Shown here: piece after piece, positions 18,005 to 64,000 of the stretch
How positions within the stretch are numbered: position 1 is the stretch's first letter
Layout of the letters: each line of letters opens with the position of its first letter
Assembly: GCA_030390025.1 (NCBI GenBank)
Contig: CM059431.1
Location: 99,636,001-99,700,000 of the forward strand
DNA: 64,000 bases
Direction of reading: 5' to 3'
Source: Squalus acanthias
Taxonomy: Eukaryota
Program-made: the position numbers and the translations under genes
Notes under the pieces: generated by a model
Database searches by the model: none
What the model was told of the DNA's origin: nothing
Seen by the model: the letters and a program-made list of their open reading frames with translations, nothing else

Positions 18005-19396
18005 AAGGTTAAACATTAAGAAAATGATGCTTAACGTTGATGAAAAAAACTGCAGCCTTAGCATTTAGATGATGGGTAGAAACCATTGCTTGATGTGGTT
18101 TCAGACATCCGATGAACCCCTCACTTCGACTTGTTTCTTGGCCCATTAATCTGGATGTACTCCGATTGCAGTGATCTGTGTCGTAAAGTGTAAGGGAACA
18201 CTGAGGCCAGCTAGGCTTCTATTCCCTGGAATATAGAAAATTAAGGGGTGATCTAATTGAGGTGTCTAAGATGATTAAAGGAGTTGATAGTGTAGAGAGA
18301 GAGAAACTATTTCTCTGGTGGGGGGAGTCCAGAACAAGGGGCGTAACCTTAAAATCAGAGTCAGGCTGTTCAGGAGAGGAGTTGGGAAGCACTTCTCCAC
18401 ACAAAGGGTGGTAGAATTGTGGAACTCTCTCCCACATAAAGCAGCAGATGCATTTTGGCAGAAGGAACAGGGAGAGGCAATAAACACTTAATGACAGTTT
18501 TAAAGAGTGTGCAGGGACAGAGGGACCTGGGAGTTAATGTGCATAGGTCACTGAAGGTGGCGGGACATATTGAGAGTGTGGTTAGCAAAGCATATGAGAT
18601 CTTGGGCTTCATAAATAGAGGTATTGCGTACAAAAGTAGAGAAGTTATGCTGAACCTTTATAAAGCGCTGGTTAGGCCACAACTGGAGTATTGCATCCAG
18701 TTCTGGTCACCACACTTTAGGAAGGATGTGAAGGCCCTTGAGAGGGTGCAGAGGAGATTTACCAGAATGGTTCTGGGGCTGGGGGATCTTAGCTACAAGG
18801 ACAGGTTGGAGAAGCTGGATTTGTTTTCATTAGAGCAAAGGAGGTTGAGTGGTGATTTGATAGAGGTGTACAAGATTATTACGGGTTTGGATAGGCTAGA
18901 CAGGGAAAGGTTGTTCCCACTAGTTGATGGTACAAGGACTAGGGGACACAGATTTAAGGTTTTGGGCAAGAGATACAGGGGGGATGTGAGGAAAAACTTT
19001 TTTACGCAGCGAGTGATGAGGACCTGGAACTCGCTGCCGACGGAAGTGGTGGAAGCGGAGACACTCAATGTTTTCAAGGGGAGACTGGATAGGCACTTGA
19101 GGGAAATAAACTTGCAGGGCTACGGGGATAGAGCGGGGGAATGGGACTGACTGGATTGCTCTACAGAGAGCCAGCACGGACTCGATGGGCCGAATGGCCC
19201 CCTTTTGTGCCTTTATGACTTAGGACTCTATGACAGCTCAATTAATAATTTTAAATCTGAGAGCGATAGATTTTTGCTAGAGAGGTGTGTAAAAGGATAT
19301 GGAGCCAAGGCGGGTGGATGGAGTTAAGATGCAGATCAGCCACAATTTCATTGAATGGCTCGAGGGGCTGAATGACCTCCTCCTGTTCCTGTGTTA
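18005..19396 (+). mobile_element. Older CR1 3' fragment hosting a nested CR1
   Basis: CR1 3' sequence at 18215-18451 resumes at about 19233 and is collinear with the copy at 46815-47190. The 5' 200 bp is only weakly CR1-like. Possible TSD CTAGTTGA. Confidence 0.65.
18452..19232 (+). mobile_element. Younger 5'-truncated CR1 LINE
   Basis: ORF 18455-19150 with RDLGV, LYKALVRPQLEYCIQFWSP, RTRGH and FFTQRV..WNSLP, followed by a tctatgac-type tail. Confidence 0.92.
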
Positions 19397-22804: not shown

Positions 22805-23624
22805 CAACAACAACAACTTGTATTTATATAGCACCTTTAAAGTAGTAAAACGTCCCAAGGCGCTTCACAGGAGTAATTTGACACCGAGCCACATAAGGAG
22901 TATTAGGGCAGGTTGGTCAAAGAGGCAGGTTTTAAGGAGTGTTTTAAAGGAGAAGAGAGAGGCGGAGAGGCGGAGAGGTTTAGGGAGGGAATTCCAGAGC
23001 TTAGGGCCTAGGCAACAGAAGGCACAACTACCAATGGTTGAGCGAATATAATGAGGGATGCGCAAGAGGGCAGAATTAGAGGAGTGCAGATATCTCGGGG
23101 GGTTGTGGGGCTGAAGGAAATTACAGAGATAGGGAGGGGCGAGGCCATGGAGGGATTTGAAAACAAGGATGAGAATTTTGAAATCGAGGCGCTGCTTAAC
23201 CGGGAGCCAATGTAGGTCTGCGAGCACAGGGGGTGATGGGCGAACGGGACTTGGTGCGAGTTAGGACACGGGCAGCTGAGTTTTGGATGACCTCAAGTTT
23301 ACGTAGGGTGGAATGTGGGAGGCCAGCCAGGAGTGCGTTGGAATAGTCAAGTCTAGAGGTAACAAAGGCATAGATGAGGGTTTCAGCAGCGGATGAGCTG
23401 AGGCAAGGGCGGAGACGGGCGATGTTACGGAGGTTGAAATAGGCGGTCTTAGTTATGCTGTGGATATGTGGTCGGAAGCTCATTTCAGGGTCAAATATGA
23501 CACCAAGGTTGCGAACAGTGTGGTTCAGCCTCAGACAGATGTTAGGGAGAAGGATGGAGTCAGTGGCTAGGGAACGGAGTTTGTGGCGGGACCGAAAACA
23601 ATGGCTTCGGTCTTCCCAATATTT
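22805..23624 (-). mobile_element. L2-type LINE 3' fragment
   Basis: [31 protein letters not shown] and [15 protein letters not shown], with a (TTG)n tail. Confidence 0.9.
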
Positions 23625-24919
23625 CTGCGTGAAATGGCTAATACTAAGCTGACTGGAACCCTTCCACCTCCTTGATAACACACCCAGCACAGTGTTCTCT
23701 TTCCTACGCGGCAGTAACTGAATGAGTCGTGCCATTTTGAATTGAGTTATTTCACTGTAAAAAGACATTTAACCGTGCCTCAGTGCTATGTTATATTTGG
23801 ATTTTCTCCATGTCTTTTATATTGGTGACTTTTGCGTCTAAACTTAAATCAGCTCTGGCTCTCTCATGGGCATGAATACCCCATAAAAATATCCAGATCT
23901 GATCCAAGCTGACATCGTAGGTTGATTCCTGGGATGAGAGTGTTGAGAGGGCTGTCCTATGAAGGTAGAGAGGCGCAGAATTCTTAAAATGTATTCAGGA
24001 GAACTTTTTTCATCAGTATATAGCAAGCCCAACAAGAGAGGGGGAGCCGTTGTGGACTTGGTTTTAGGGAATGAAGCTGGGCTGGTGGAAGGGGTATCAG
24101 TGGGAGAGCTTTTTGGCGGTAGTGAGCATACTTCAGTTAGATTTAGCATAGTTATGGAAATGGACAAAGGTAGACCAGGGGAAAAAGTTCTCAATTGGGG
24201 AAAGGCTAATTTTACTAAGCTGAGATGTGATTTCGTAAAAGTGGACTGGAAACAGCTACTTGAAGGTAAATCAGTGTCAGAGCAGTGGGAGGTGTTCAAT
24301 GAGGAGACAGTGAGGGTTCAGAGCAAATTTGCTCCCACAAAGAAAAAGGGTGGGACTCCCAAATCTAGAGCCCCTGGATGTCAAGGGGTAGGCAGGGTAG
24401 GATAAGACAAAAAAGGGAAGCTTATGTCAGATACCGAGTGCTAAATACTGCAGAAAGCCTAGAGGAGTATAGAAAGTGCAGGGGTGAAATTAAGAAGGAA
24501 ATTAGGAAAGCAAAGAGAGGGCATGAAAAATATTGGCAAGTAACATCAAGGAAAACCCAAAGATGTTTTAGAAATACATAAAGAGCAAGAGGATAACGAA
24601 AGCAAGTAGGGCCTATAAGAGACCAAAAAGGTAACCTGTGTGTGGAGGCGGAAGACGTGGGTATGGTTCTTCATGAATACTTTGTGCCTGTTTTCACAAA
24701 AGAGAGGGATGATGCAGACATTGTAGTTAAGGAGGAGTGTGAAATATTAGATGAGATAAACATATTGAGAGAGGAAATATTAAAGGATTTAACATCATTG
24801 AAAGTAGATAAATCGGCAGGCTCAGATGAAATGTATCCCAGACTGTTAAGAGAGGCAAGGGATGAAATAGCAGAGGCTCTGACCATCATTTTCCAATCCT
24901 CTCTGGCTACAGGTGTGGT

Positions 24920-24998
24920 CAAAATTGAGAGGTCGCACAACACCAGGTTATAGTCCAACAGTTTTATTTGAAATCACAAGCTTTCGGAGCTATCGATC
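24920..24998 (-). mobile_element. Penelope-type terminal-repeat fragment with the 3' half of a hammerhead
   Basis: Reverse complement reads gctccGAAAGCTTgtgatttcaaataaaactgttggactataacctggtgttgtg. It interrupts the CR1 at ggtgtggt|gccagag. Confidence 0.55.
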
Positions 24999-26405
24999 GC
25001 CAGAGGTGCCAGAGGACTGGAGGACTGCTAATGTGGTACCCTTGTTTAAAAAGGGAGAAAGGGATAGACCGAGTAATTACAGGCCAGTCAGCCTAACCTT
25101 GCTGGTGGGCAAATTATTGGAAAAAATTCTGAGGGACATTATTAATCGTCATTTGGAAAGGCACAGATTAATCAAGGACAGTCAGCATGGATTTGTTATG
25201 GAAAGTCGTATCTGACTAACTTGATTGAATTTTTTGAGGAGGTAACAAGGAGGGCCAATGAGATTAGTATGTTTGATGTAGTCTACATGGATTTTAGCAA
25301 GGCTTTTGACAAGGTCCCACATGGCAGACTAGTCAGAAAAGTAAAAGCCCATGGGATCCAAGGCAAAGTGGCAAGTTGGATCCAGAATTAGCTCAGAGGC
25401 AGGAAACAAAGGGTAATGGTCGAAGGGTGTTTTTGTGACTGGAAGGCTGTTTCCAGTGGGGTTCCGCAGGGCTCAGTACTGGGTCCCTTGCTTTTTGTGG
25501 TATATATCGATGATTTAGACTTCAATGTAGGGGTATGATTAAGAAGTTTGCAGATGATACAAAAATTGTCCGTGTCTTTGATAGTGAGGAAGAAAGCTGT
25601 AGACTGCAGGAAGATATCAATGGACTGGTCAGGTGGGCAGAACAGTGCCAAATGGAATTCAATCCAGAGAAGTGTGAGGTAATATATTTGGGGAGGGCTA
25701 ACAAGGCAAGGGAATACACAATAAATGGTAGGACACTGAGACATACAGAGGATCAGAGGGACCTTGGAGTGCATGTCCACAGATCTCTGAAGGTAGCAGG
25801 ACAGGTAGATAAGGTGGTTAAGAAGGCATATGGGACTCTTGCCTTTATTAGCCAAGGCATAGAATATAAGAGCAGGGAGGTTATGCTAGAACTTATTAAA
25901 AAACTAGTTAGGCCACAGCTAGAGCACTGCGTACAGTTCTGGTCACCACGGGGGCGATTTTCTGACGCTGGAGGAGGCGGGTTTGGAGGCAGGAAAGGCG
26001 GGAAAATCAGAAACAATGAGGGCGGGTTCGGAACCCGCCTCCAACCCGCCTCCAATCCTCCACCGCGGGATTTTGCCAGTGCCGGATTTGGAGGTCGGGA
26101 AACAGTTCCGCCTCCAGCTGGCCATAGTGTTAGTTAACATGATTAAATGCTCGTTAAGGACCTCTCTAAGCCTATTTTGAGAGGCCCTGGCGGGTTGACT
26201 CATGGGTGGCCTCCTCACAGCTGCAGGTCCAACAATATATCGTTTATTTCATCAAGGATTACTTGCAGGTGCCAGACCTTGGGTTTAATAGGTCTCTGAG
26301 CACTTTTAGAAGGCCTTCCGAAGTCGGAGGTGCTGCAGCTTGAATCTATCAACTGTGGGACCTCCTTGGAAGACCCTCTCCCCGCTTGCAATGAGCGCTT
26401 CCCCA

Positions 26406-27851
26406 ATGGAGGCATCTGCAAGCAGCATGGGAACCATTCGTTTTCTTTCTCCATGGACCTCAGATGAGGATGAGGACCATCCACGGCAGCAGCAGAACCA
26501 GGCAGCTCAGGAGCAACACCAGCAGGAGCCCCAACCTCCTGCTTAGGAGCAACAGCAGCAGGAGCCCCAACCTCCTGCTTAGGAGCAACAGCAGCAGGAG
26601 CCCCAACCTCCTGCTTAGGAGCAACAGCAGCAGGAGCCCCAACCTCCTGCTTAGGAGCAACAGCAGCAGGAGCCCCAACCTCCTGCTTAGGAGCAACACC
26701 AGCAGGAGCCCCAACCTCCTGCTCAGCCACCTGATGCTGCACAGGGCAGAAGGCACCAGCGCATCGAGGCACCTCGCCGCAGAAGATACCCCCGACAGAG
26801 GGTTTACAGACAGAGGATGAGCTATCTCAACATGAGTGAGCAGCAGTGCCAAAGGAGGCTGAGACTTTCGCGAGAGGTTGTCCGAGAGATCTGCGGCCTG
26901 CTGCAGCAAGACCTGGTGCCCAGAGGAACAGGGTGGACACCCCTTACCAGTGGCTGTCAAAGTCACCACCGCACTCAACTTCTTTGCCTCAGGCTCCTTC
27001 CAGGGATCATCAGCGGCATCTCCCAGTCGGCCGCCCACAGTTGCATCACACATGTTACTGATGCCCTTTTTGCTAAGGCCCACAATTACATCCAGTTCAC
27101 AAGGGATCAAGCAAGTATAACCGCTGTTTGGTTGGCTTTGCAAATATGGCAGGCATGCCAATGGTGCAGGGCATCATAGACTGCACACATGTGGCCCTTA
27201 GGGCACCCCATCACAACCCAGCTATCTTTGTCAACCGAAAGGGCTTCCACTCCCTCAACGTTCAGCTGGTGTGTAACCACAAGAAGGAGTTCTTGCATGT
27301 TTGCGCCAAGTTCTGTGGAAGTTGCCATGACTCTTTCATCCTGCTGCACTCTAGTGTTCCTCCGCTTTTCAATCCACCAAACCAACTTAACGGATGGCTC
27401 CTTGATGAAAAAGCTACCCCCTGAAGAAGTTGCTAATGACGCCGATCAGGAGGCCAGCTAACGAGGCTGAAGAGCGCTACAACGCCAGCCACACTTCGAC
27501 CAGGTCCATCATAGAGCAAACCATTGGGTTGTTGAAGATGCGCTTCCGTTGCCTTGACCAATCAGGTGGAGCCCTGCAGTATACACCATACAGGGTCTCC
27601 AGAATGGTTGTGGTCTGCTGTACACTGCACAACATCACACAGCGTCGTGGCTTGCCGCTTCCTGATGAGCAGATGAGGATCAGGAGGAGGAGGAGGAGGA
27701 GGAGGATCTGGAGGAGGAGGAGGAGCAGGAGCAGGAGGAGAAGCAGGAGGAGGTCAGAGCGCCGGTGTATCGACCAGCGGCAGCGGCAGCACGCGAGCAC
27801 ATGGCTGCCCGGGATGCAAGGGATGAACTTATCATGGCCAGATTTGCATAG
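26406..27851 (+). pseudogene. Harbinger (HARBI1-like) DDE transposase pseudogene
   Basis: [80 protein letters not shown] and CCTLHN, with several frameshifts and stops. Confidence 0.92.
26511..26726 (+). repeat. 36-bp minisatellite, 6 copies, in the transposase N-terminus
   Basis: GAGCAACA(C/G)CAGCAGGAGCCCCAACCTCCTGCT(T/C)AG x6. Confidence 0.95.
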
Positions 27852-28089
27852 GTTGCCCAAGTTGGCACATGTCCTTGGCTCCATCCTAGGACATCATTGA
27901 CAATGGACATGACTCTCTGGCCTCCTTTCACTCAGGCCACCAACCTGACAATGCAAGTGTGGCGGAGGCCGCAATGTGGAGCTGCCTAAGGCGAAAGAAC
28001 AGATGGCATAACGCCAACATTCTGGCTTCAAATCATTTTAATGCTTTCCAACAGGGATGGTATTTCATCAATACACAGAAACAGTCTCC

Positions 28090-28278
28090 CAATCTGTACA
28101 CAGATCTGGAGGTTATATCCCTTGCCAGCTGTACCCTCACAGCCTTGGTTTCTTTGGCAGGCCTCTTCCTCCCAGATGAGTGGAAGAGCACCTCCCTGCT
28201 AGCTGTCACCCCCTCAAACAACATTTGCAGCACCTCATCTGAGAGCCTCGGGGAGGCTCTTGCCTTGGAATTGGACAT
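28090..28278 (-). pseudogene. Harbinger Myb/SANT-like gene, N-terminal remnant
   Basis: MSNSKARASPRLSDEVLQMLFEGVTASREVLFHSSGRKRP..QLARDITSRSV. Confidence 0.72.
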
Positions 28279-29090
28279 AGGTTTCTCAAAATATGTTGCA
28301 GGTGGTGCAGGAGAAGCAGAAATACTGTGGAAGGAGCCAAGGGAGCAAGAAGCCATAAAATCAGGCAGGAAAAGTGCTGTCAACAGAGGCGAGTTTCAGT
28401 CCCAAAACATTAATTGAGCAAGGGCATCCCACACCTCTGAAATCAAGTGGAAAATCATGGGAAAAATCGCAAAATTTTGAAAACTATCAGTGGAGGCGAG
28501 TTTCAAACCCACCCAAACTGAAACCCGCCTCCATCTCACCTCCAGTGAGAAAATCGCCCCCACATTACAGGAAAGATGCGATTGCACTAGAGAGGGTATA
28601 AAGGAGATTTACGAGGATGTTGCCGGGACTGGAGAATTTTAGATATAGGGAAAGATTGGATAGGCTGGGGTTGTTTTCTTTGGAGCAGAGGAGGCTGAGG
28701 GGAGACCTGATTGAGGTGTATAATATTATGAGGGGCCTAGATAGAATGGATAGGAAGCACCTATTTCCCTTAGCAAAGAGGTCAATAACTGGGGGCATAG
28801 ATTTAAAGTAATTGGTAGAAGGATTAGTGGGGAGTTGAGGAGAATTTCTTTCACCCAGAGGGTGGTGGGGGTCCAAAACTCACTGTCTGAAAGGGTGGTA
28901 GAGGCAGAAACCCTCATCGCATTTAAAAAGTACTTGGATGTGCACTTGAAGTGCCGTCACCCACAGGACTACGGACCAAGAGCTGGAAAGTGGGATTAGG
29001 CTGGATGGTGCTCTTTCTCGGCCGACACAGACACGATGGGCCGAATAACCTCCTTCTGTGCCATAAACTTCTATGATTCTTTGATTCTAT

Positions 29091-31388: not shown

Positions 31389-32500
31389 TCACCAATTAAA
31401 TATTGGAAAGACCGAAGCCATTGTTTTCGGTCCCACATCGTTACCTCTGGTGTCCCCCAAAGGATCTATCCTTGGCCCCTCCTATTTCTATCTACATGTT
31501 GCCCCTTGGCGACATCATCCGAAAACACAGCGTCAGTTTCCACTTGTACGCTGACAACACCCAGCTCTGCCTCACCACCACCTCTCTCGACCCCTCCACG
31601 GTCTCTAAATTGTCAGACTACTTGTCTGACATCCAGTTCTGGATGAGCAGAAATTTTTTCCAATTAAATATTGGGAAGACCGAAGCCATTGTTTTCGACC
31701 CCCGCCACAAACTCCGTTCCTTAGCCATTGACTCCATCCCTCTCCCTAACATCTGTCTGTGGCTGAACCACACTGTTTGCAGCCTTGGTGTCATATTTGA
31801 CCCTGAAATGAGCTTCCAACCACATATCCGCAGCATAACTAAGACCGCCTACTTCCACCTCTGTAACATCGCCCGTCTCCGCCCTTGCCTCAGCTCATCT
31901 GCTGCTGAAACCCTCATCTATGCCTTTGTTACCTCTAGACTCGACTATTCCAATACACTCCTGACTGGCCTCCCACATTCTACCCTACGCAAACTTGAGG
32001 TCATCCAAAACTCGGCTCCCCGTGTCCTAACTTGCACCAAGTCCCGTTTGCCCATCACCCCAGTGCTCGCTGACCTACATTGGCACCCGGTTAAGCAACG
32101 CCTCATTTTCAAAATTCTCATCCTTGTTTTCAAATCACTCCATGGTCTCGCCCCTCCCTATCTCTGTAATCTCCTTCAGCCCCACAACCCCCCCCCCCGA
32201 GATATCTGCACTCCTCCAATTCTGCCCTCTTGAGCATCCCTGATTATAATCACTCCACCATTGGCGGCCGTGCCTTCTGCTGCCTAGCTCTGGAATTCCC
32301 TCCCTAAACCTCTCCACCTCTCTTTCCTCCTTTAAGACGCTCCTTAAAACCTACCTCTTTGACCAAGCTTTTGCTCACCTGCCCTAATTTCTCCTTATGT
32401 GGCTCAGTGTCAAGTTTTTTGTCTTTTAATACTCCTGTGAAGCACCTTGGGACGTTTTACTACTTTAAAGGTGCTATATAAATGCAATTTGTTGTTGTTG
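31389..32500 (+). mobile_element. L2-type LINE 3' fragment
   Basis: ORF 31403-32233 with HLYADNTQL, LNIGKTE, SRLDYSN and LHWHPV, plus a (TTG)n tail. 31391-31435 duplicates 31661-31700. Confidence 0.9.
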
Positions 32501-33021: not shown

Positions 33022-33226
33022 AAAAAAATTCATTCTCGGGGTGTGGGCGAAGCTGGCAAGGCCGGCATTTATTGCCCGTCCCCAGTTGCCCTAAAAAGTG
33101 GTTTTGATACAACTGAGTGGATCACTCGACCACTTCAGAGGGGGGTTAAGAGTCAACCACATTGGTGTGGGATTGGAGTCACATGTAGGCCCAGACCGGG
33201 TAAGGACGGCAGGTTTCCTTCCCTAA
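33022..33226 (-). mobile_element. Fragment of the tRNA-headed SINE/LINE family at 57-62 kb
   Basis: Reverse complement of ggaaacctgccgtccttacc...gggcaataaatgccggcc. Confidence 0.75.
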
Positions 33227-34252: not shown

Positions 34253-34494
34253 GCGATGAAGATGTAATCTTCAGATATATAGTTTCATATCGATGCTTGA
34301 GACAAGTCCTGACAGTTCATGTTTATTTACTGTCCAAAGTTAATCCTTGTCTTTGACACTTTCATGTTATATAACTAGTGTGCTTTTTTTATATAGCTTG
34401 GCTGTTCCCAAACAGTAGGGTAAAATGCACTTGTAAATGTTGAGGTAAAGGGAATGGGTAACACAATTCCAATTTTAATTTATCCTTGGTTAGA

Positions 34495-35076
34495 ATTTCT
34501 AGGCTTGACTATTCCAACGCACTCCTGGCTGGCCTCCCACCTTGCACCCTACATAAACTTGAGGTCACCCAAAACTCGGCTGCCCGTGTCCTAACTCGCA
34601 CCCAGTCCCGTTCACCCATCACCCCTGTGCTCACTGACCTACATTGGCTCCCGGTTAAGCAGCCTCTCGATTTCAAAATTCTCATCCTTGTTTTCAAATC
34701 CCTCCATGGCCTCGCCTCTCCCTATCTCTGTAATCTCCTCCAGCCCCACAACCCCCCGTGATATCTGCGCTCCTCTAATTCTGCCCTCTTGAGCATCCCT
34801 GATTATAATCGCTCAACTTTTGGTGGCCGTGCCTTCTGTTGCCTGGGCCATAAGCTCTGGAATTCCCTCCCTAAACCTCTCCGCCTCGCTACCTCTCTTT
34901 CCTCCTTTAAGACGCTCCTTAAAACCTACCTCTTTGAGCAAGCTTTTGGTCACCTGCCCTAATTTCTCCTTATGTGGCTCAGTGTCAAATTTTTTGTCTT
35001 TTAATACTCCTGTGCAGCGCCTTGGGATGTTTTACTACGTTAAAGGCGCTATATAAATACAAGTTGTTGTTGTTGT
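34495..35076 (+). mobile_element. L2-type LINE 3' fragment
   Basis: [20 protein letters not shown] with a (TTG)n tail. Confidence 0.9.
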
Positions 35077-40741: not shown

Positions 40742-40836
40742 TTTTTTTTAAATTTGTTTATGGGATGTGGGCGTCGCTGGCAAGGCCAGCATTTATTGCC
40801 CATCTAATAGCCCTTGAGAAGGTGGTGGTGAGCCAC
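40742..40836 (-). mobile_element. 3' tail of the tRNA-headed SINE/LINE family
   Basis: gggatgtgggcgtcgctggcaaggccagcatttattgccc...cttgagaaggtggtggtgagcc. Confidence 0.8.
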
Positions 40837-40911
40837 TGTGTCAGCCAATGTTTTGTAGGAGGGGCGGGACTTTCGGCAGGACTCACAGCAAACACTCTAT
40901 TTTACAGCAAA

Positions 40912-56685: not shown

Positions 56686-57071
56686 GATATCTTTGCCCCA
56701 CCCAATGTCTTGTCAGGCAGCTTCCTCCTCTCCCTGATGCCAGCAGGTTCTCTACAGCTGGTAAGGACAAGGGTTTTTTTTCTTTACTTATTCATTGTCA
56801 GGATGTGGCCATCCCTGGCAAGGCCAAGCTGTAATCCCCTGAGACAGTGGTGGTGGTGGTGGGCCTTTCTCTTGAACCGCTGCAGTCTGTGCGGTTAAAG
56901 TATTCCTTCTGGTGGCTTTCATACAACTCGGCCATTTCAGGGGGCGCTTAAGAATCAACCACAGAGGCCCAGACCGGTTAAGGACGGCAGGCTTCCTTCC
57001 CTAAAGGAATTAGTGAACCAGTTGGGCTTTTACAGCAATCTGACAGCTTCATGGTCAGTTTTACTGATGAC

Positions 57072-57191
57072 CAGCCTTCCCGTTAAGCTGTACGGCCACG
57101 CCGCGCCCTGAAGGTCCTGCACAGCTGGTGAGCCAGCTTTTAAATAGAAAAAGGAGGCCATGTGGGCCAAAAAAAATTAGAGGGAACATCG
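57072..57191. mobile_element. Short hAT-like MITE
   Basis: Degenerate TIRs cagccttcccgttaa / ttagagggaacatcg and an imperfect 8-bp TSD ctgatgac/ctaatcac. Confidence 0.55.
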
Positions 57192-57244: not shown

Positions 57245-57652
57245 GGTAGCATAGTGGTGATGCCACTGGGCTAGTAATCCCGTAGGCCTGGACTAATGAT
57301 CCAGAGACATGAGTTCAAATCCCACCACGCCAGCTGGGGAATTTAAATTCAGTTAATTAAATAAATCTGGAATAAAAATCTAGTAATGGTGAGCATGAAA
57401 CTACCGGATTGTTGTAAAAACCCATCTGGTTCACTAATGTCCTTTAGGGAAGGAAATCTGCCGTCCTTACCCAGTCTGGCCGATATGTGACTCCAGACCC
57501 ACAGCAATGTGGTTGACTCTTAACTGCCCTCTGAAATGGCCCAGCGAGTTACTCAGTTGTATTCACCAGCACCTTCTCGAGGGCGACTGGGGACGGGCAA
57601 TAAATGCCGGCCTCGCCAGCGACGCCCACATCCCGTGAATGAATTTTTAAAA
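57245..57652 (+). mobile_element. Near full-length tRNA-headed SINE (head and tail of the LINE at 58497)
   Basis: A box TAGCATAGTGG (57247) and B box GTTCAAATC (57313). Body matches 58497-58813; tail matches 62167-62245. Confidence 0.88.
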
Positions 57653-58112
57653 ACAGCCACGATGGGTTTTGAGCTCATGTCTCTGGATTAAATAGTCCAG
57701 GCCTCTGGATTGCTCATCTAGTAACATAACCACTACACTACCGTGCCCAGAAAATTGCACTCATATCTTCCAAAAAATTTCTATTACAGTACCACGGTCA
57801 ACAGAAAAAAAGCTAATTTCACACACAGATTTGCTGGAATGATTTTCGGAGTTCTGTGTGACCCCAGTGTGGGAGCAGATGTGTCATGTTTTGGTACAAT
57901 AATACCCGGGAATGAAGACTGCAATGAGAGCAAATACATTTAATTCTGAAGTTTATTTTTAGTTGTTTCTCAGAAGCGATTGATTGACAGCTCGTTGCGT
58001 TTTGTGTTGTAACCGTGTGATGGTCCCTTTGGGCAGGAGGCAGATCACAGATAAGAAAGAAACAATCTGCTTTCCTGATAAACAGTTCAATACCCAGTGA
58101 CAAAAATTGTGT

Positions 58113-58484
58113 TCTCTCACACTCACACTCACTCACACTCACACTCACACACTGACACTCACACTCACACTCACTCACTCACACACTCATACACAAACAC
58201 ACTCACTCACTCTCACACTCACACACAGACACACTCACACTCACACACAGACACACACACACTCACACTCTCTCACATTCACTCACACTCACACAGACAC
58301 ACACTCACTCACACTCACACACAGACATACACTCACTCACTCACACACTCACTCACACACAGACACACACTCACTCATTCTCTCACTCACACACTCTCTC
58401 GCACTCACACACACAGACACACTCTCGCACACTCATACTTTCTTGCACTCACACACACTCTCGCACTCACACACTCTCGCGCAC
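58113..58484. repeat. Degenerate (CA)/(CACT) microsatellite
   Basis: Low-complexity cacactca tract. Confidence 0.95.
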
Positions 58485-58496
58485 GGGAACGTTAAG

Positions 58497-61400
58497 TAGA
58501 GTAGTGGTGATGTCACTGGACTAGTAATCCAGAGGCCTGGACTAATGATCCAGAGACGTGAGTTCAAATCCCACCGCGGCAGCTGGGGAATTTAAATTCA
58601 GTTAATTAAATAATCTGGAATAAAAAGCTAGTATCAGTAATGGTGACCATGAAACTATTGGATTGTTGTAAAAACCCATCTGGTTCACTGATGCCCTTTA
58701 GGAAAGGAAATCTGCTGTCCTTACCTGGTCTGACCTATATGTGACTCCAGACCCACAGCAATGTGGTTGACTCTTATCTGCTCTCTGAAATGGCCGAGCG
58801 AGTCACTCAGTTGTAACAAACTGCTACGAAACACAATAATAAGAATGAAACCGGACAGACCACCCGGCATCGACCTCGGCTATGGACATGGCAATAGCAC
58901 ACCCAGCCCAGTCCTTCTCACAAACATCTGGGGACTTGTGCCAATAATTGGGAGAGCTGTCCCACAGACTAGTCAAAGCAACAGCCTGACATAGTCACAC
59001 TCACACTCACAGAATCATACCTTTCAGCCAAACTCCTCCATCACCATCCCTGGGTATGTCATGTCCCGCCGGCAGGACAGACCCACCAGGGGTGGTGGCA
59101 CAGTGGTATACAGTCGGGAAGGAGTGGCCCTGGGAGTCCTCAACATTGACTCCGGATCTCATGGCTTCAGGTCAAGCATGGGCAAGGAAACCTCCTGTTG
59201 ATTACCACCTACCACAGCTGATGAATCAGTACTCCTCCATCTTGAACACCACTTGGAAGAAGCACTGAGAGTAGCAAGGGCACAGAATGTACTCTGGGTG
59301 GGGGACTTCAATGTCCATCACCAAGAGTGGCTCAGTAGCACCACAGCTGGCCGAGTCCTAAAGGTCATAGCTGCCAGTCTGAGCCTGCGACAGGTGGTGA
59401 GAGAACCAACACGAGGGAAAAACCTACCTGACCTCGTCCTCACCAATCTACCTGTCGCAGATGCATCTGTCCATGACAGTATTGGTAGCAGTGACCACCG
59501 CACAGTCATTGTGGAGACGAAGTCCTGTCTGGACACCCTCCATTGTGTTGTGTGGCACTACCACCGTGCTAAATGGGATAGATTCAGAACAGATCTAGCA
59601 GCTCAAAACTGGGCATCCATGAGGCACTGTGGGGCAGCAGCAGAATTGTATTCCACCACAATCTGTAACCTTATGGCCCGGCATATCCCTCACTCTACCA
59701 TTACCATCAAGCCAGGGGACCAACCCTGGTTCAATAAGGAGTGTAGAAGAGCATGCCAGGAGCACCACCAGGCGTACCTAAAAATGCGGTGAAAACCTGG
59801 GGAAGCTGCAACACAGGACTACATGCATGCTAAAAAGCGGAAGCAGCATGCTATAGACAGGGCTAAGTGATCCCACAATCAACGGATCAGATCAAAGATC
59901 TGCAGTCCTGTCGTGAATGGTGGTGGACCATTAAACAACTAACGGGAGGAGGAGGCTCCATGAATATCCCCATCCTCAGTGATGGTGGAGCCCAGCATGT
60001 GAGTTTTTTTTTAATTCGCTTATGGGATCTGGGCGTCGCTGGCAAGGCCAGCATTTATTGCCCATCCCTAGTTGCCCTTGAGAAGGTGGTGGTGAGCCGC
60101 TTTCTTGAACTGCTGCAGTCCGTGTGGTGAAGGTACTCCCACAGTGCTGTTAGGGAGGGAGTTCCAGGATTTTGACCCAGCGACGATGAAGGATCAGCGA
60201 TATATTTCTAAGCCAGGATGTTGTGTGACTTGGAGGGGAACTTGGAGGTGGTGGTGTTCCCATGCGCCTGCTGCCCTTGTCCTTCTAGGTGGAAGAGGTC
60301 ACAGGTTTGGGAGGTGCTGCCAAAGAAGCCTTGGCGAGTTGCTGCACTGCATCTTGTAGATGGTACACACTGCAGCCACGGTGCGCCCGTGGTGGAGGGA
60401 GTGAATGTTTAAGGTGGTGGATGGGGTGCGAATCAAACGGGCTACTTTGTCCTGGATGGTGTCGAGCTTCTTGAGTGTTGTTGGAGCTGCACTCATCCAG
60501 GCAAGTGGAGAGTATTCCATCACACTCCTTAATTGTGCTTTGTAGATGGTGAAAAGGCTTTGGGGAGTCAGGAGGTGAGACACTCGCCGCAGAATACCCA
60601 GCCTCTGACCTGCTCTTGTTGCCACAGTATTTCTGTGGCTGGTCATTAAGTTTCTGGTCAATGGTGACCCCCCAGGATATTGATGGTGGGGGATTCAGTG
60701 GTGGTAATGCCGTTGAATGTCAAAGGACAGTAGTTAGATGCTCGCTTGTTGGAGATAGTCATTGCCTGGCACCTCTGTGGTGCGAATGTTACCTGCCACT
60801 TATCAGCCCAAGCCTGAACATCATCTAGGTCTTGTTGCACGTGGGAAGCTGCATCACAGGACTACATGCATGCTAAAAAGCTGAAGCAGCATTCTATAGA
60901 CAGGGCTAAGCGATCCCACAATCAACGATCAGATCAAAGCTCTGCAGTCCTGCCACATTCAGTCGTGAATGGTGGTGGACCATTAAACAACTAACGGGAG
61001 GAGGAGGCTCCATGAATATCCCCATCCTCAATGATGACGGAGCCCAGCATGTGAGTGCAAACGACAAGGCTGAAGCGTTTGCAACCATCTTCAGCCAGAA
61101 GTGCCGAGGGGATGATCCCTATCGGCCTACTCCCAAGGTCCCCACCATCACAGAAGCCAGTCTTCAGCCAATTCGACTCACTCCACTTGTTATCAAGAAA
61201 TGGCTGAGCACACTGGATACAGCAAAGGCTATGAGCCCTGACAATATCCCAGCTATCGTGCTGAAGACTTGTGCTCCAGACCTAGCCGCGCCTCTAGCCA
61301 AGCTGTTCCAGTACAGCTACAACACTGGCATCTATCCGACAATGTGGAAAACTGCCCAGGTATGTCTTGTCCACAAAAAGCAGGACAAATCCAATCCGGC

Positions 61401-62250
61401 CAATTACTGTCCCATCAGTCTACTCTCAATCATCAGCAAAGTGATGGAAGGTGTCATTGACAGTGCTATCAAGCGGCACTTACTCACCAATAACCTGCTC
61501 ACCGATGCCCAGTTTGGGTTCCGGCAGGACCACTCAGCTCCAGATCTCATTACAGCCTTGGTCCAAACATGGACAAAGGAGCTGAATTCCAGAGGTGAGG
61601 TGAGAGTGACTGCCCTTGTAATCAAGACAGCATTTGACCGAGTGTGGCATCAAGGAGCCCTAGTAAAACTGAAGTCAATGGGAATCTGGGGGAAAACTCT
61701 CCATGGGCTGGAGTCATACCTAGCACAAAGGAATATGGTTGTGGTGGTTGTAGGTCAATCATCACAGCCCCAGGACATCGCTGCAGGAGTTCCTCAGGGC
61801 AGTGTCCTAGGCCCAACCATCTTCAGCTGCTTCATCAATGACCGTCCCTCCAACATAAGGTCAGAAATGGGGATGTTCACTGATGATTGCACAGTGTTCA
61901 GCGCCATTCACAACTCCTCAGATACCGAAGCAGTCCATGGCCCGCCCCTCCCAAACCCGCGGCCTCTCCCACCTGGAAGGACAAGGGCAGCAGGCACATG
62001 GGAACACCATCACCTCTAAGTTCCCCTCCAAGTCACACACCATCCTGAGTTAGAAGTATATCGCCGATCCTTCATCGTCGCTGGGTCAAAATCCTGGAAC
62101 TCCCTCCCTAACAGCACTGTGGGAGCACCTTCACCACACGGACTGCAGCGGTTCAAGAAGGCGGCTCACCACCACCTTCTCAAGGGGCAACTAGGGATGG
62201 GCAATAAATGCTGGCCTTGCCAGCGACCCCCACATCCCATAAACAAATTA
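58497..62250 (+). mobile_element. tRNA-headed APE-RT non-LTR retrotransposon (CR1-group-like); composite of two copies
   Basis: SINE-like head, then APE (TNIWGL, QQPDIV..TESYL, DRPTRGGG, VGDFNVHH, DLVLTN, SDH) and RT (NYCPISLLS, QFGFR, AFDRVWH, GVPQGSVLGP, FTDD). Tail gggcaataaatgctggcc. Confidence 0.88.
60004..61944 (-). mobile_element. Second copy of the same LINE, nested, with a 5' inversion
   Basis: 60004-60842 is the 3' part on - (QQDLDDVQAWADKWQVTF through the tail). 60843-61944 is the adjoining upstream RT part on +. Confidence 0.7.
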
Positions 62251-62256
62251 AACAAA

Positions 62257-64000
62257 ACTCAGACACACACACTCACACACACACTCACACACACTCTCGC
62301 ACTCAGACACACACACTCGCACTCACACACACACTCACACACTCTCTTGCACTCAGACACACACACTTGCACGCACACTCACACACACTCGCACTCACCA
62401 CACACACACTCACACTCACACACACTCGCACTCACACACACATTCACACACACTCGCACTCACACACACACTCGCACTCTCACACACACTCACACACACT
62501 CACACACACTCGCACTCTCACACACACTCTCTCGCACTCACACACACTCACATGCACACTCGCACTCTCACACACTCGCACTCACACACACTCGCACTCA
62601 CACACACACTCGCACTCACACACACACTCTCTCGCACTCACACACACACTCACATGCACACTCACACACACTCGCACTCACACACACACACACACACTCA
62701 CACTCACACTCACACACACTCTGACACACACTCACACACACTCGCACTCGCTCACACACTCACACACACTCGCACTCAGACACACACTCGCACACACTCA
62801 CACACACACACACACTCACACACACTCGCACTCAGACACACACTCGCATGCACACTCACACTCTCTCGCACTCGCACACACTCACACACACTTGCACTCA
62901 GACACACACTCGCACGCACACTCATACACACTCACACACTCTCTCGTACTCACACACTCTCTCGCACTCAGACACACTCGCATTCGCACACACTCGCACG
63001 CACACTCACGCACACACACTCTCGCATTCACACACTCGCACTCAACACTCTCTCGCACTCACACACTCTCGCACTCACACACTCTCTCGCACTCACACAC
63101 TCTCTCGCACTCGCGCACACACTCGCACACACATTCACACTCGCATTCACACTCGCACACACACTCGCACTCAACACTCTCTTGCACTCACACACTCTCT
63201 CGCACTCACACACTCTCTCGCACTCACACACACGCTCACACACTCTCGCATTCAGACACATGTTCACACACTCTCGCACTCACTCTCGCACTCAGACACA
63301 CGCTCACACACTCTCGCACTCACACACACTCGCACTCAGACACACGCTCACACACTCTCGCATTCAGACACACGCTCACACACTCTCGCACTCACACATG
63401 CTCGCACTCAGACACACTCGCACTCACTCTCGCACTCAGAAACACGCTCACACACTCTCACTCACACACTCTCGCACTCAGACACACTCGCACTCAGACA
63501 CACACTCACACACACTCGCACTCACACTCTCGCACTCACTCTCTCGCACTCAGACACACGCTCACACACACTCGCACTCACATTCTCGCACTCACACACT
63601 CTCGCACTCAGACACACGCTCACACACTCTCGCACTCAGACACACGCTCACACACTCTCGCACTCACACTCTCGCACTCAGACACACGCTCACACACTCT
63701 CGCACTCACTCTCGCACTCAGACTCACGCTCACACACTCTCGCACTCACTCTCGCACTCAGACTCACGCGTACACACTCTCGCTCTCACTCTCGCACTCA
63801 CACACTCTCGCACTCACACACTCTCGCACTCACTCTCGCACTCAGACACACGCTCACACACTGTTGCACTCAGACACACTCGCACTCAGACACACTCGCA
63901 CTCAGACACACTCGCACTCAGACACACGCTCACACACTCTCGCACTCACACACTCTCTCGCACTCAGACACACGCTCACACACTTTCGCACTCACACTCT
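62257..64000. repeat. CA-rich low-complexity tandem repeat (cacacactctcgcactca / cagacacacgctca units); runs off the right edge
   Basis: Continuous simple-sequence tract. Confidence 0.95.

Follow-up and report, generated by a model that had tools for sequence, protein, structure and literature searches.

Near the right end of a 64,000-nt stretch of the shark Squalus acanthias (NCBI GenBank assembly GCA_030390025.1, contig CM059431.1, positions 99,636,001 to 99,700,000 of the forward strand; hereafter the window), we analysed a composite retroelement, in which the tRNA-like head and the body of a short interspersed element (SINE) stand directly before the open reading frame (ORF) of a long interspersed element (LINE). 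The composite lies inside a CA/CTC-rich satellite array, which Tandem Repeats Finder (TRF) places at 58113–63997 and which is interrupted by a block of ~3.8 kb at about 58481–62258. TRF finds CA/CTC-rich satellite with periods of 6–44 in the left flank (58113–58480), and the right flank (62263–63997) consists of the same satellite as the left.

The tRNA-like head occupies 58490–58582 on the plus strand and carries A-box-like and B-box-like motifs as well as a 22-nt insert in the variable region, according to Rfam, ARAGORN and a motif scan. The Rfam tRNA model aligns with 58490–58582 at 27.6 bits (E = 0.0018), just below the gathering score of 29, and no Rfam match in the whole window reaches its gathering score. 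The only tRNA-like sequence that ARAGORN calls in all 64 kb is 58511–58583. Compared with the consensus motifs, the A-box-like motif at 58497–58507 has 2 mismatches and the B-box-like motif at 58561–58571 has 1 mismatch. Thus the motif scan recovers the type-2 RNA polymerase III (Pol III) promoter motifs that a preliminary description of this DNA had placed at the start of the element.

The head is followed by the SINE body (58583–58815, plus strand), which in alignment ends with ...TTGTA as the SINE copies do. The region 58502–58815 is 90.5% identical to the SINE copy at 57252–57561, while similarity to SINE copies stops beyond 58815, which sets the joint between SINE and LINE at 58815/58816. 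No ribozyme is found at the joint among the 3 Rfam matches in 58400–59200 at E values up to 1. The short element has the features of a tRNA-derived SINE, namely a 5′ region related to tRNA, in which A and B boxes are spaced as in a tRNA, and short, dispersed, non-coding copies.

Three such copies, of a type about 400 bp long, were aligned in the window. Copy A (57246–57654, plus strand) contains head, body and an 85-nt LINE-derived tail, and ends with T5 (57644–57648). Copy B (56790–57078, minus strand) is 5′-truncated; after its body end ...TTGTA it continues into the final ~150 nt of the LINE. The third copy (33038–33226, minus strand) has the 85-nt LINE tail and ends in a run of the T7 or T5 type. 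The 85-nt tail common to SINE and LINE is 84.5% identical between 62166–62249 of the composite and 57563–57645 of copy A. The body end ...TTGTA is the same in copy A, in the copy at 33226, in copy B and in the composite; after it come the last 85 nt of the LINE in two copies, ~150 nt in copy B, and the whole LINE in the composite. Judged by these alignments, the head and body appear to form a discrete module with a fixed 3′ end, and this module is found attached to 3′ segments of the LINE in three different lengths. As both the head-body (90.5%) and the tail (84.5%) recur on the composite, SINE and LINE share both ends, and the SINE may be described as a composite from which all sequence after ...TTGTA has been removed, up to the last 85 nt (in a second subfamily, up to the last ~150 nt).

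The 3′ ends of the two element types differ. SINE 3′ ends consist of GAATGAA and then T5 or T7, which resembles a Pol III terminator (57644–57648, and the minus-strand copy at 33038–33226), while LINE-type tails are A-rich and contain no run of four T (T4; 62240–62258, 60004–60030 and 40742–40760). The end of the composite resembles the LINE-type tails at 60004–60101 and 40742–40837, unlike the SINE-type tails at 57563–57654 and 33038–33102. Therefore the type of tail tells whether a 3′ end derives from a SINE or from a LINE. CR1 and L2 elements characteristically finish in a short tandem repeat; no tandem motif is seen in the three LINE-type ends, all of which are A-rich.

Beyond the joint, a LINE-specific leader of 29 nt without any SINE match (58816–58844, plus strand) leads to the start codon. 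The 5′ part of the LINE ORF (58845–60003, plus strand), identified by ORF analysis, Pfam and tblastn with the related proteins P0001 (956 aa) and P0003, contains the start, the endonuclease and a linker, and corresponds to about aa 1–396 of P0001; it is disrupted by stops and frameshifts near 58992, 59199 and 59790. Pfam detects Exo_endo_phos_2 (E = 2.3e-11) in 59202–59789 and RVT_1 (E = 1.5e-23) in 60910–62016, so that endonuclease and then reverse transcriptase are encoded in one ORF colinear with P0001. The tblastn alignment of P0001 spans aa 24–945 in three pieces: 58962–60004 (plus) for aa 24–396, 60898–61935 (plus) for aa 343–691 at 44% identity, and 60849 down to 60083 (minus) for aa 692–945. 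At its 3′ end the ORF extends into the final 85 nt, that is, into the tail shared with the SINE.

At 58845, an ATG in the reading frame of the endonuclease stands 23 codons before the conserved motif LTNI.GL, as in P0001, P0003 and P0011. Generally, the relatives are single proteins of ~950 aa which begin 0–28 residues before the LTN..GL motif. Because their N-termini match this position, ATG 58845 is a credible start and the LINE is 5′-complete. The preliminary description had stated that a SINE-like body almost directly adjoins the endonuclease ORF and leaves no room for an ORF1; the 29 nt between joint and ATG agree with both statements, and the relatives likewise have no ORF1, on contigs of 3.0–3.7 kb with 90–500 nt before the ORF. 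By its domain order, the LINE would be a compact (~2.9 kb), single-ORF element with an apurinic/apyrimidinic-type endonuclease and a reverse transcriptase (APE-RT), in the CR1/L2/jockey-like group.

In a large protein collection there is no close copy of the shark LINE, the best match being 45% identical; of 120 listed proteins, two, both from one source, bear the name 'RNA-directed DNA polymerase from mobile element jockey'. More distant relatives were collected with a search from an alignment of 16 relatives, which gave 80 loci, all animal LINEs on contigs binned into metagenome-assembled genomes (MAGs). P0011 alone as query gave no match in genome contigs, and viral contigs searched with the alignment of relatives gave one marginal match of 61 aa only. 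ARAGORN finds a tRNA in one of the 80 loci (L079), 1.9 kb away from a truncated match. A loose scan for A and B boxes gives 16 matches in 838,092 nt of the relatives, of which only the one in L061 lies just before an ORF start, at about chance level.

Two side observations concern LINEs of this protein type. In total, 563 stretches coding for animal-type APE-RT LINEs (for example L005–L019) sit on contigs binned as bacterial or archaeal MAGs, including symbiont bins such as Thiodiazotropha, Sedimenticola and Endozoicomonas; these are almost certainly host DNA carried along. In the window itself, weak matches (24–31% identity) to the C-terminal part of the same LINE protein type are located at 18458–19111, 23274–23507 (minus), 31784–32305 and 34483–34932, and all four are other decayed LINE 3′ fragments.

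The resident LINE has been damaged after its insertion. An inverted, 5′-truncated LINE 3′ piece, which was delimited by tblastn and by identity and comprises about aa 692–945, a tail and A9, occupies 60004–60842 (minus strand); its A9 reads as T9 at 60004–60012. It is flanked by a direct duplication of ~200 bp, whose left copy (59800–60003, plus strand) is 91% identical to 60843–61056 over 214–215 columns. The middle part of the ORF (60843–61940, plus strand), recognised by Pfam and tblastn, starts with the right duplication copy and covers about aa 343–691, including the reverse transcriptase region. It ends at a deletion joint (61941–61943, plus strand), where sequence and tblastn indicate that ~525 nt coding for the C-terminal part of the reverse transcriptase are gone. 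The segment deleted here is still present in the inverted piece, at 60318–60842, and the deletion break lies within a few nt of the inner end of that piece. The last ~307 nt of the LINE (61944–62258, plus strand), defined by ORFs and alignment, run from the ORF into the 85-nt tail (62166–62250) and finish with an A-rich, LINE-type end without T4; compared in inverse orientation, the inverted piece and 61944–62257 are 92.7% identical.

These features suggest that a second, 5′-truncated LINE of the same family inserted inversely at 60003/60004 with a target duplication of ~200 bp, and that the matching segment of the resident copy was then deleted, from the inner edge of the new inverted repeat. 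As the start of the deletion coincides with the inner end of the inverted piece, the large inverted repeat may have triggered it. Twin priming was considered as the source of the inversion and is ruled out: the inverted part is the extreme 3′ end and has its own A9 tail. With stops, frameshifts, inversion and deletion, the copy is dead.

Several observations bear on whether the head and the LINE arrived together. The left end of the block is the SINE 5′ end, as judged from the head alignment and from a low-agreement loose-end consensus upstream of 58502 in sequencing run X16. The right end of the block is a LINE-type tail, behind which the satellite resumes at once, with no SINE tail. By the logic of target-primed reverse transcription, a SINE without tail is unable to insert alone (relevant passages of Kojima 2018, PMC5786205), and because such a tail-less fragment cannot retrotranspose by itself, the head belongs to the inserted LINE unit. 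That the head is not a chance neighbour follows from the single satellite on both sides, the types of the two ends, the position of the joint and the high-depth contig cover of the joint. From the above, the block from 58481 or 58490 to 62258 is probably one retrotransposed unit, now dead.

In order to see whether the joint recurs, 4 of the 24 listed public sequencing runs (X1, X6, X7 and X16, from three organisms) were aligned to 58490–60003 at 85% likeness, with 53,900, 112,884, 94,044 and 2,535 contigs aligned, respectively (all values below are in this order). The summed depth is 107,434, 554,481, 207,962 and 5,356 at 58800, in the SINE body; 174,066, 375,238, 65,958 and 1,837 at 58822, 7 nt inside the LINE; and 613,926, 429,605, 258,276 and 913 at 58857. 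Thus it passes the joint without a step in all four runs, and the depth of the SINE head is very high in all of them. A variant at 58800, 15 nt inside the body, occurs in 114, 124, 126 and 38 contigs, with 42–63 letters to the contig end, and a variant at 58822 occurs in 109, 125, 122 and 40 contigs, with 44–59 letters to the contig end. Of 5,774 loose ends and 1,458 joints, 24 and 15 were listed; none of these is a break at 58815/58816, while the private indels of the Squalus copy (58880/58910, 58944, 59157 and 59531) do appear among them, with 33–230 contigs each. Besides, organisms A–E hold 45–65% of the sampled 31-mers of 58560–59300; no RNA data set is recorded as containing the stretch, and only by a guess would X16 be RNA. 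The joint is probably multi-copy in at least three organisms: a head attached only in this copy, which the preliminary description had named as fatal to its proposal, does not agree with joint depths of 1,837–375,238 in four runs from three organisms. Exact-pattern scans of metagenome contigs gave 0 matches for the joint and 0 for the LINE leader, and a protein search with the 86-aa frame spanning the joint gave no match.

Our best explanation, to which we assign a probability of roughly 0.6, is that the block is a dead member of a multi-copy family of SINE-headed LINEs, with the entire head and body of the partner SINE (~330 nt) serving as 5′ leader. The linkage of head and LINE is real and probably a trait of the family. 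The head-body would have been joined to the LINE through template switching of the reverse transcriptase, and the composite would then have propagated, with head-bearing RNA as a transposition intermediate of the LINE lineage. The head-body would stand where the relatives have a 5′ untranslated region (UTR) of 90–500 nt, and could act as a portable promoter and leader. In a more far-reaching version, which we hold to be doubtful, a vertebrate LINE lineage uses the head-body taken over from its own SINE as a 5′ end and is propagated in this form, the full-length coding RNA starts at a Pol III-type internal promoter, and the very successful SINE is an internally deleted form.

A number of results weigh against the SINE-headed family. 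Words across the flank junction (58480 + 62257) are present in the array in 7 exact copies and in 29 with at most 1 mismatch, the median for the array's own words being 11.5; this fits a single empty site, but the test is weak in such a very simple satellite. With one low-complexity satellite as both flanks, a target-site duplication around head and LINE is hard to call. There is no second copy of the LINE 5′ region within the 64-kb window. A head at the ORF start is found in none of the 80 distant relatives, so that the clade as a whole is not marked by it. The depth at 58822 reaches only 26–87% of that at 58857 where it is the lower of the two, and some LINE copies may have another 5′ end. 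In addition, the contig evidence consists of the best-supported rows, and distances to contig ends may include unaligned letters, so that the multi-copy state of the joint is inferred rather than counted. Finally, the leader of 355 nt contains 8 upstream ATGs, where 6.4 are expected, which makes it a poor leader for scanning. One of the 8 is in frame and open to the ORF. An ATG in the SINE body, at 58761, shares the frame of the LINE start codon, and this frame is open for 37 codons upstream, which could be chance.

The preliminary description had put forward another explanation, that this is an autonomous LINE, transcribed by Pol III from its tRNA-type internal promoter and kept free of T4 by selection against terminators. 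Its counts are right. Runs of four or more T (T4+) on the sense strand number 0 in 58497–60003 (1507 nt) and 0 in 60843–62250 (1408 nt), compared with 13 A4+ runs in these 2,915 nt, and the inverted 3′ piece has one, an A4 at 60552 that reads as T4 (60552–60555) on the sense strand of the piece. The comparator at 23945–29090 does have many T4+ runs (24), but it is not an ordinary CR1, since it includes a PIF/Harbinger-type DDE_Tnp_4 transposase fragment at 27077–27897 (E = 1.8e-13 and 2.8e-14); its RT-coding part alone (24372–25942, 1.6 kb) has 9 T4+. Next to this transposase fragment lies a low-complexity repeat-coding stretch at 26215–26826.

The number of T4+ expected by chance depends on the null model. 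Dinucleotide-preserving shuffles give an expectation of 1.23 and P(0) = 0.26; permutation of synonymous codons within 652 codons gives 1.91 and P(0) = 0.09; uniform synonymous usage gives 4.07 and P(0) = 0.007. Hence the comparison with codon-shuffled controls, which had been proposed as a check, favours terminator avoidance only under uniform usage and does not do so with the element's own codons. Behind the absence of T4 lies a strand-specific scarcity of TT: the two LINE parts have rho(TT) values of 0.52 and 0.78 and the head has 0.66, while rho(AA) is 0.85–1.13, and runs of three or more letters number 6 for T, against 46 for A, 45 for C and 36 for G. Zero T4 is therefore unremarkable, because it is expected by chance once the T-poor and TT-poor composition is kept. 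In the 3′ 830 nt there is no TT depletion (rho(TT) = 0.98) and one sense-strand T4. T4 was compared among the 35 near-full-length relatives, the other 45 of the 80 being left out as partial, and their median is 5.45 T4/kb, with rho(TT) of 1.01. One of them, L003 (91–2838 on a contig of 3,099 nt), has T = 0.20, 1 T4 in 2,748 nt and no detected tRNA-like head; being equally T-poor yet head-less, it is a useful control on terminator avoidance. Among 40 of the 189 common family variants listed, none creates a T4, and in the variants listed a T of the copy is replaced by a non-T family letter at 14 places, whereas T is gained at 7. T-poverty is thus a trait of the family, which is if anything T-poorer than the shark copy. 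Elsewhere in the window, positions 1–23000 of the plus strand have 35.8% C against 16.2% G, with 1,437 C3+ runs and 246 C4+ runs.

For a Pol III-transcribed LINE speak the A/B-box-like motifs in the head, the strand-specific TT depletion (0.52–0.78), the zero T4 against the median of the relatives, the family variants and the P(0) under uniform synonymous usage. The unit also begins at the SINE 5′ end, as if transcription had started at the +1 of the head in every cycle. Keeping a complete head over cycles needs initiation at its first base, and a type-2 internal promoter would start exactly there, which is the best argument for Pol III, although a Pol II promoter acting downstream would equally start at this base. 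On the other side, zero T4 is no more than chance would give when the dinucleotides or the codon usage of the element are kept, head-less L003 is similar, and the 3′ 830 nt escape the depletion, so that selection against terminators is not supported by these numbers. Of the features of a Pol III unit, the internal A and B boxes are present and no T4+ terminator closes the composite. Two points in particular argue against adaptation to Pol III: LINE-type tails have no T4 while SINE copies end with T5 or T7, and the leader is rich in upstream ATGs. A Pol III transcript would, moreover, be uncapped. SINEs are said to be unable to encode a protein in passages of Kojima (2018, PMC5786205), which also counts against a coding RNA of this kind. 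We regard an autonomous LINE of this type, selected to be T4-free, as rather unlikely, and it is likewise rather unlikely that Pol III makes the full-length RNA; the reading by Pol III and terminator avoidance is possible on sequence grounds and has no statistical support.

A different origin of the same structure would be recurrent dead-end chimeras, in which the reverse transcriptase switches to a head-body RNA once it has come to the 5′ end of the LINE RNA, and yields composites that do not propagate. A fixed body end ...TTGTA joined to 85 nt, ~150 nt or a full-length LINE is what a small RNA with a fixed 3′ end and a variable LINE part would give, and a leader rich in upstream ATGs together with the absent terminator suits a by-product. 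Precedents exist: Law and Burns (bioRxiv 10.1101/2025.02.02.635956) report 113 human Alu/L1 chimeras, 88.5% of them in sense orientation, and give template switching as the accepted mechanism for Alu/L1 and U6/L1 chimeras, and parts of PMC5729268 and of Kojima (2018, PMC5786205) treat template switching as the accepted origin of new SINE heads and tails. But such switching would need a donor RNA made of head and body without the tail, since the 85-nt tail of normal SINE RNA is absent at the joint; the depth just inside the joint, relative to that 35 nt further in, is too high for a rare by-product; and among the 15 of 1,458 joints listed, none leads from 58815 to internal LINE positions. We find such chimeras rather unlikely as the source of the composite. 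Preferential landing of the LINE in SINE copies, by a nick at the body/tail boundary or by priming on the SINE tail, would make the head old target DNA, and the homology of the LINE RNA tail to SINE tail DNA (85 nt, 84.5% identity) could guide such priming. In that case a SINE tail would be expected after the LINE 3′ end, where the satellite follows directly, and the terminal motif of the composite is LINE-type rather than SINE-type. The head also starts at the satellite boundary, so that a prior SINE would need an exact placement and then an exact loss of its tail, which leaves this origin highly improbable. Chance adjacency, local rearrangement or an assembly error at this single locus has in its favour that the locus is rearranged (inversion, duplication and deletion) and lies in satellite, where assemblies are fragile; the joint, by contrast, coincides with the SINE body/tail boundary and is deeply covered in four independent runs from three organisms, and we give this account hardly any weight.

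The SINE-headed LINE can be compared with several known systems. The SINE is probably HE1 and the LINE its HER1 partner, the SINE having been compared by length only (~400 bp against 402 bp). HE1 is described in PMC2911107 as a 402-bp tRNA-derived SINE of elasmobranchs. Pairs of this type resemble the shark elements in having a ~400-bp SINE with a tRNA-derived head, a body and a tail from the last 85 nt of the LINE (84.5% identity). The difference is that the described pairs share the 3′ end only, in line with the general principle for stringent SINE/LINE pairs given in passages of Kojima (2018, PMC5786205), whereas the shark LINE also has the SINE head-body at its 5′ end. Sharing of both ends is known from ingi/RIME, L1Tc/NARTc and the derivatives of RTE and Vingi elements, in which the short element equals the long one minus its interior, and SINEs have been built on such derivatives. 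In the relevant sections of the same source, sharing of the 5′ part is reported for RTE and Vingi only, while the shark LINE is CR1/L2/jockey-like; the shared 5′ part of these bipartite derivatives is a LINE UTR, thought to be transcribed by Pol II, and a small-RNA head is found on the short element only (PMC5786205). In the shark composite, unlike these derivatives, the tRNA-like head stands on the coding element itself.

Chimeras made in one event offer a second comparison. Chimeric U6/L1 insertions were reportedly described by Doucet et al. Alu/L1 and U6/L1 chimeras resemble the composite in carrying a sense Pol III-type RNA at the LINE 5′ end, and the authors of the preprint speculate that chimeras supply new LINE 5′ UTRs (Law and Burns, bioRxiv 10.1101/2025.02.02.635956). 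As reported there, the Alu/L1 chimeras are rare single events with a whole small RNA (full-length Alu) and mostly a 5′-truncated L1, whereas in the shark composite the SINE tail is absent, the LINE is full-length and the joint is apparently multi-copy. In TguSINE1 and PittSINE, according to parts of Suh et al. (2017, PMC5729268), a CR1-group reverse transcriptase likewise joined a tRNA-type head to LINE sequence, and the head brings the Pol III promoter; the product there is a short non-coding SINE and not a coding LINE. In the open-access literature, the field that our search covered as distinct from subscription journals, Repbase and Dfam, we found no description of a LINE with a tRNA-derived head.

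The usual teaching is that partner SINEs and LINEs have only their 3′ tails in common. The origin of SINE bodies, and the way in which compact LINEs without a long 5′ UTR are transcribed after each jump, are open questions (Kojima 2018, PMC5786205). Even if the composites are by-products, they show that the head-body acts as a unit of its own, attached to LINE segments that differ in length. If the SINE-headed family is real, a coding LINE with the head-body of its partner SINE would link the two kinds of element as a tangible intermediate, would extend relations with a shared 5′ part beyond RTE and Vingi, would allow promoter capture by a LINE to be tested, and would provide a natural experiment on whether a translatable RNA of 3 kb can come from Pol III. 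A lineage that depends on Pol III, if it exists, would be the first autonomous retrotransposon relying on a Pol III promoter, and the composite would be a living 'missing link' for the origin of SINEs built of head, body and tail.

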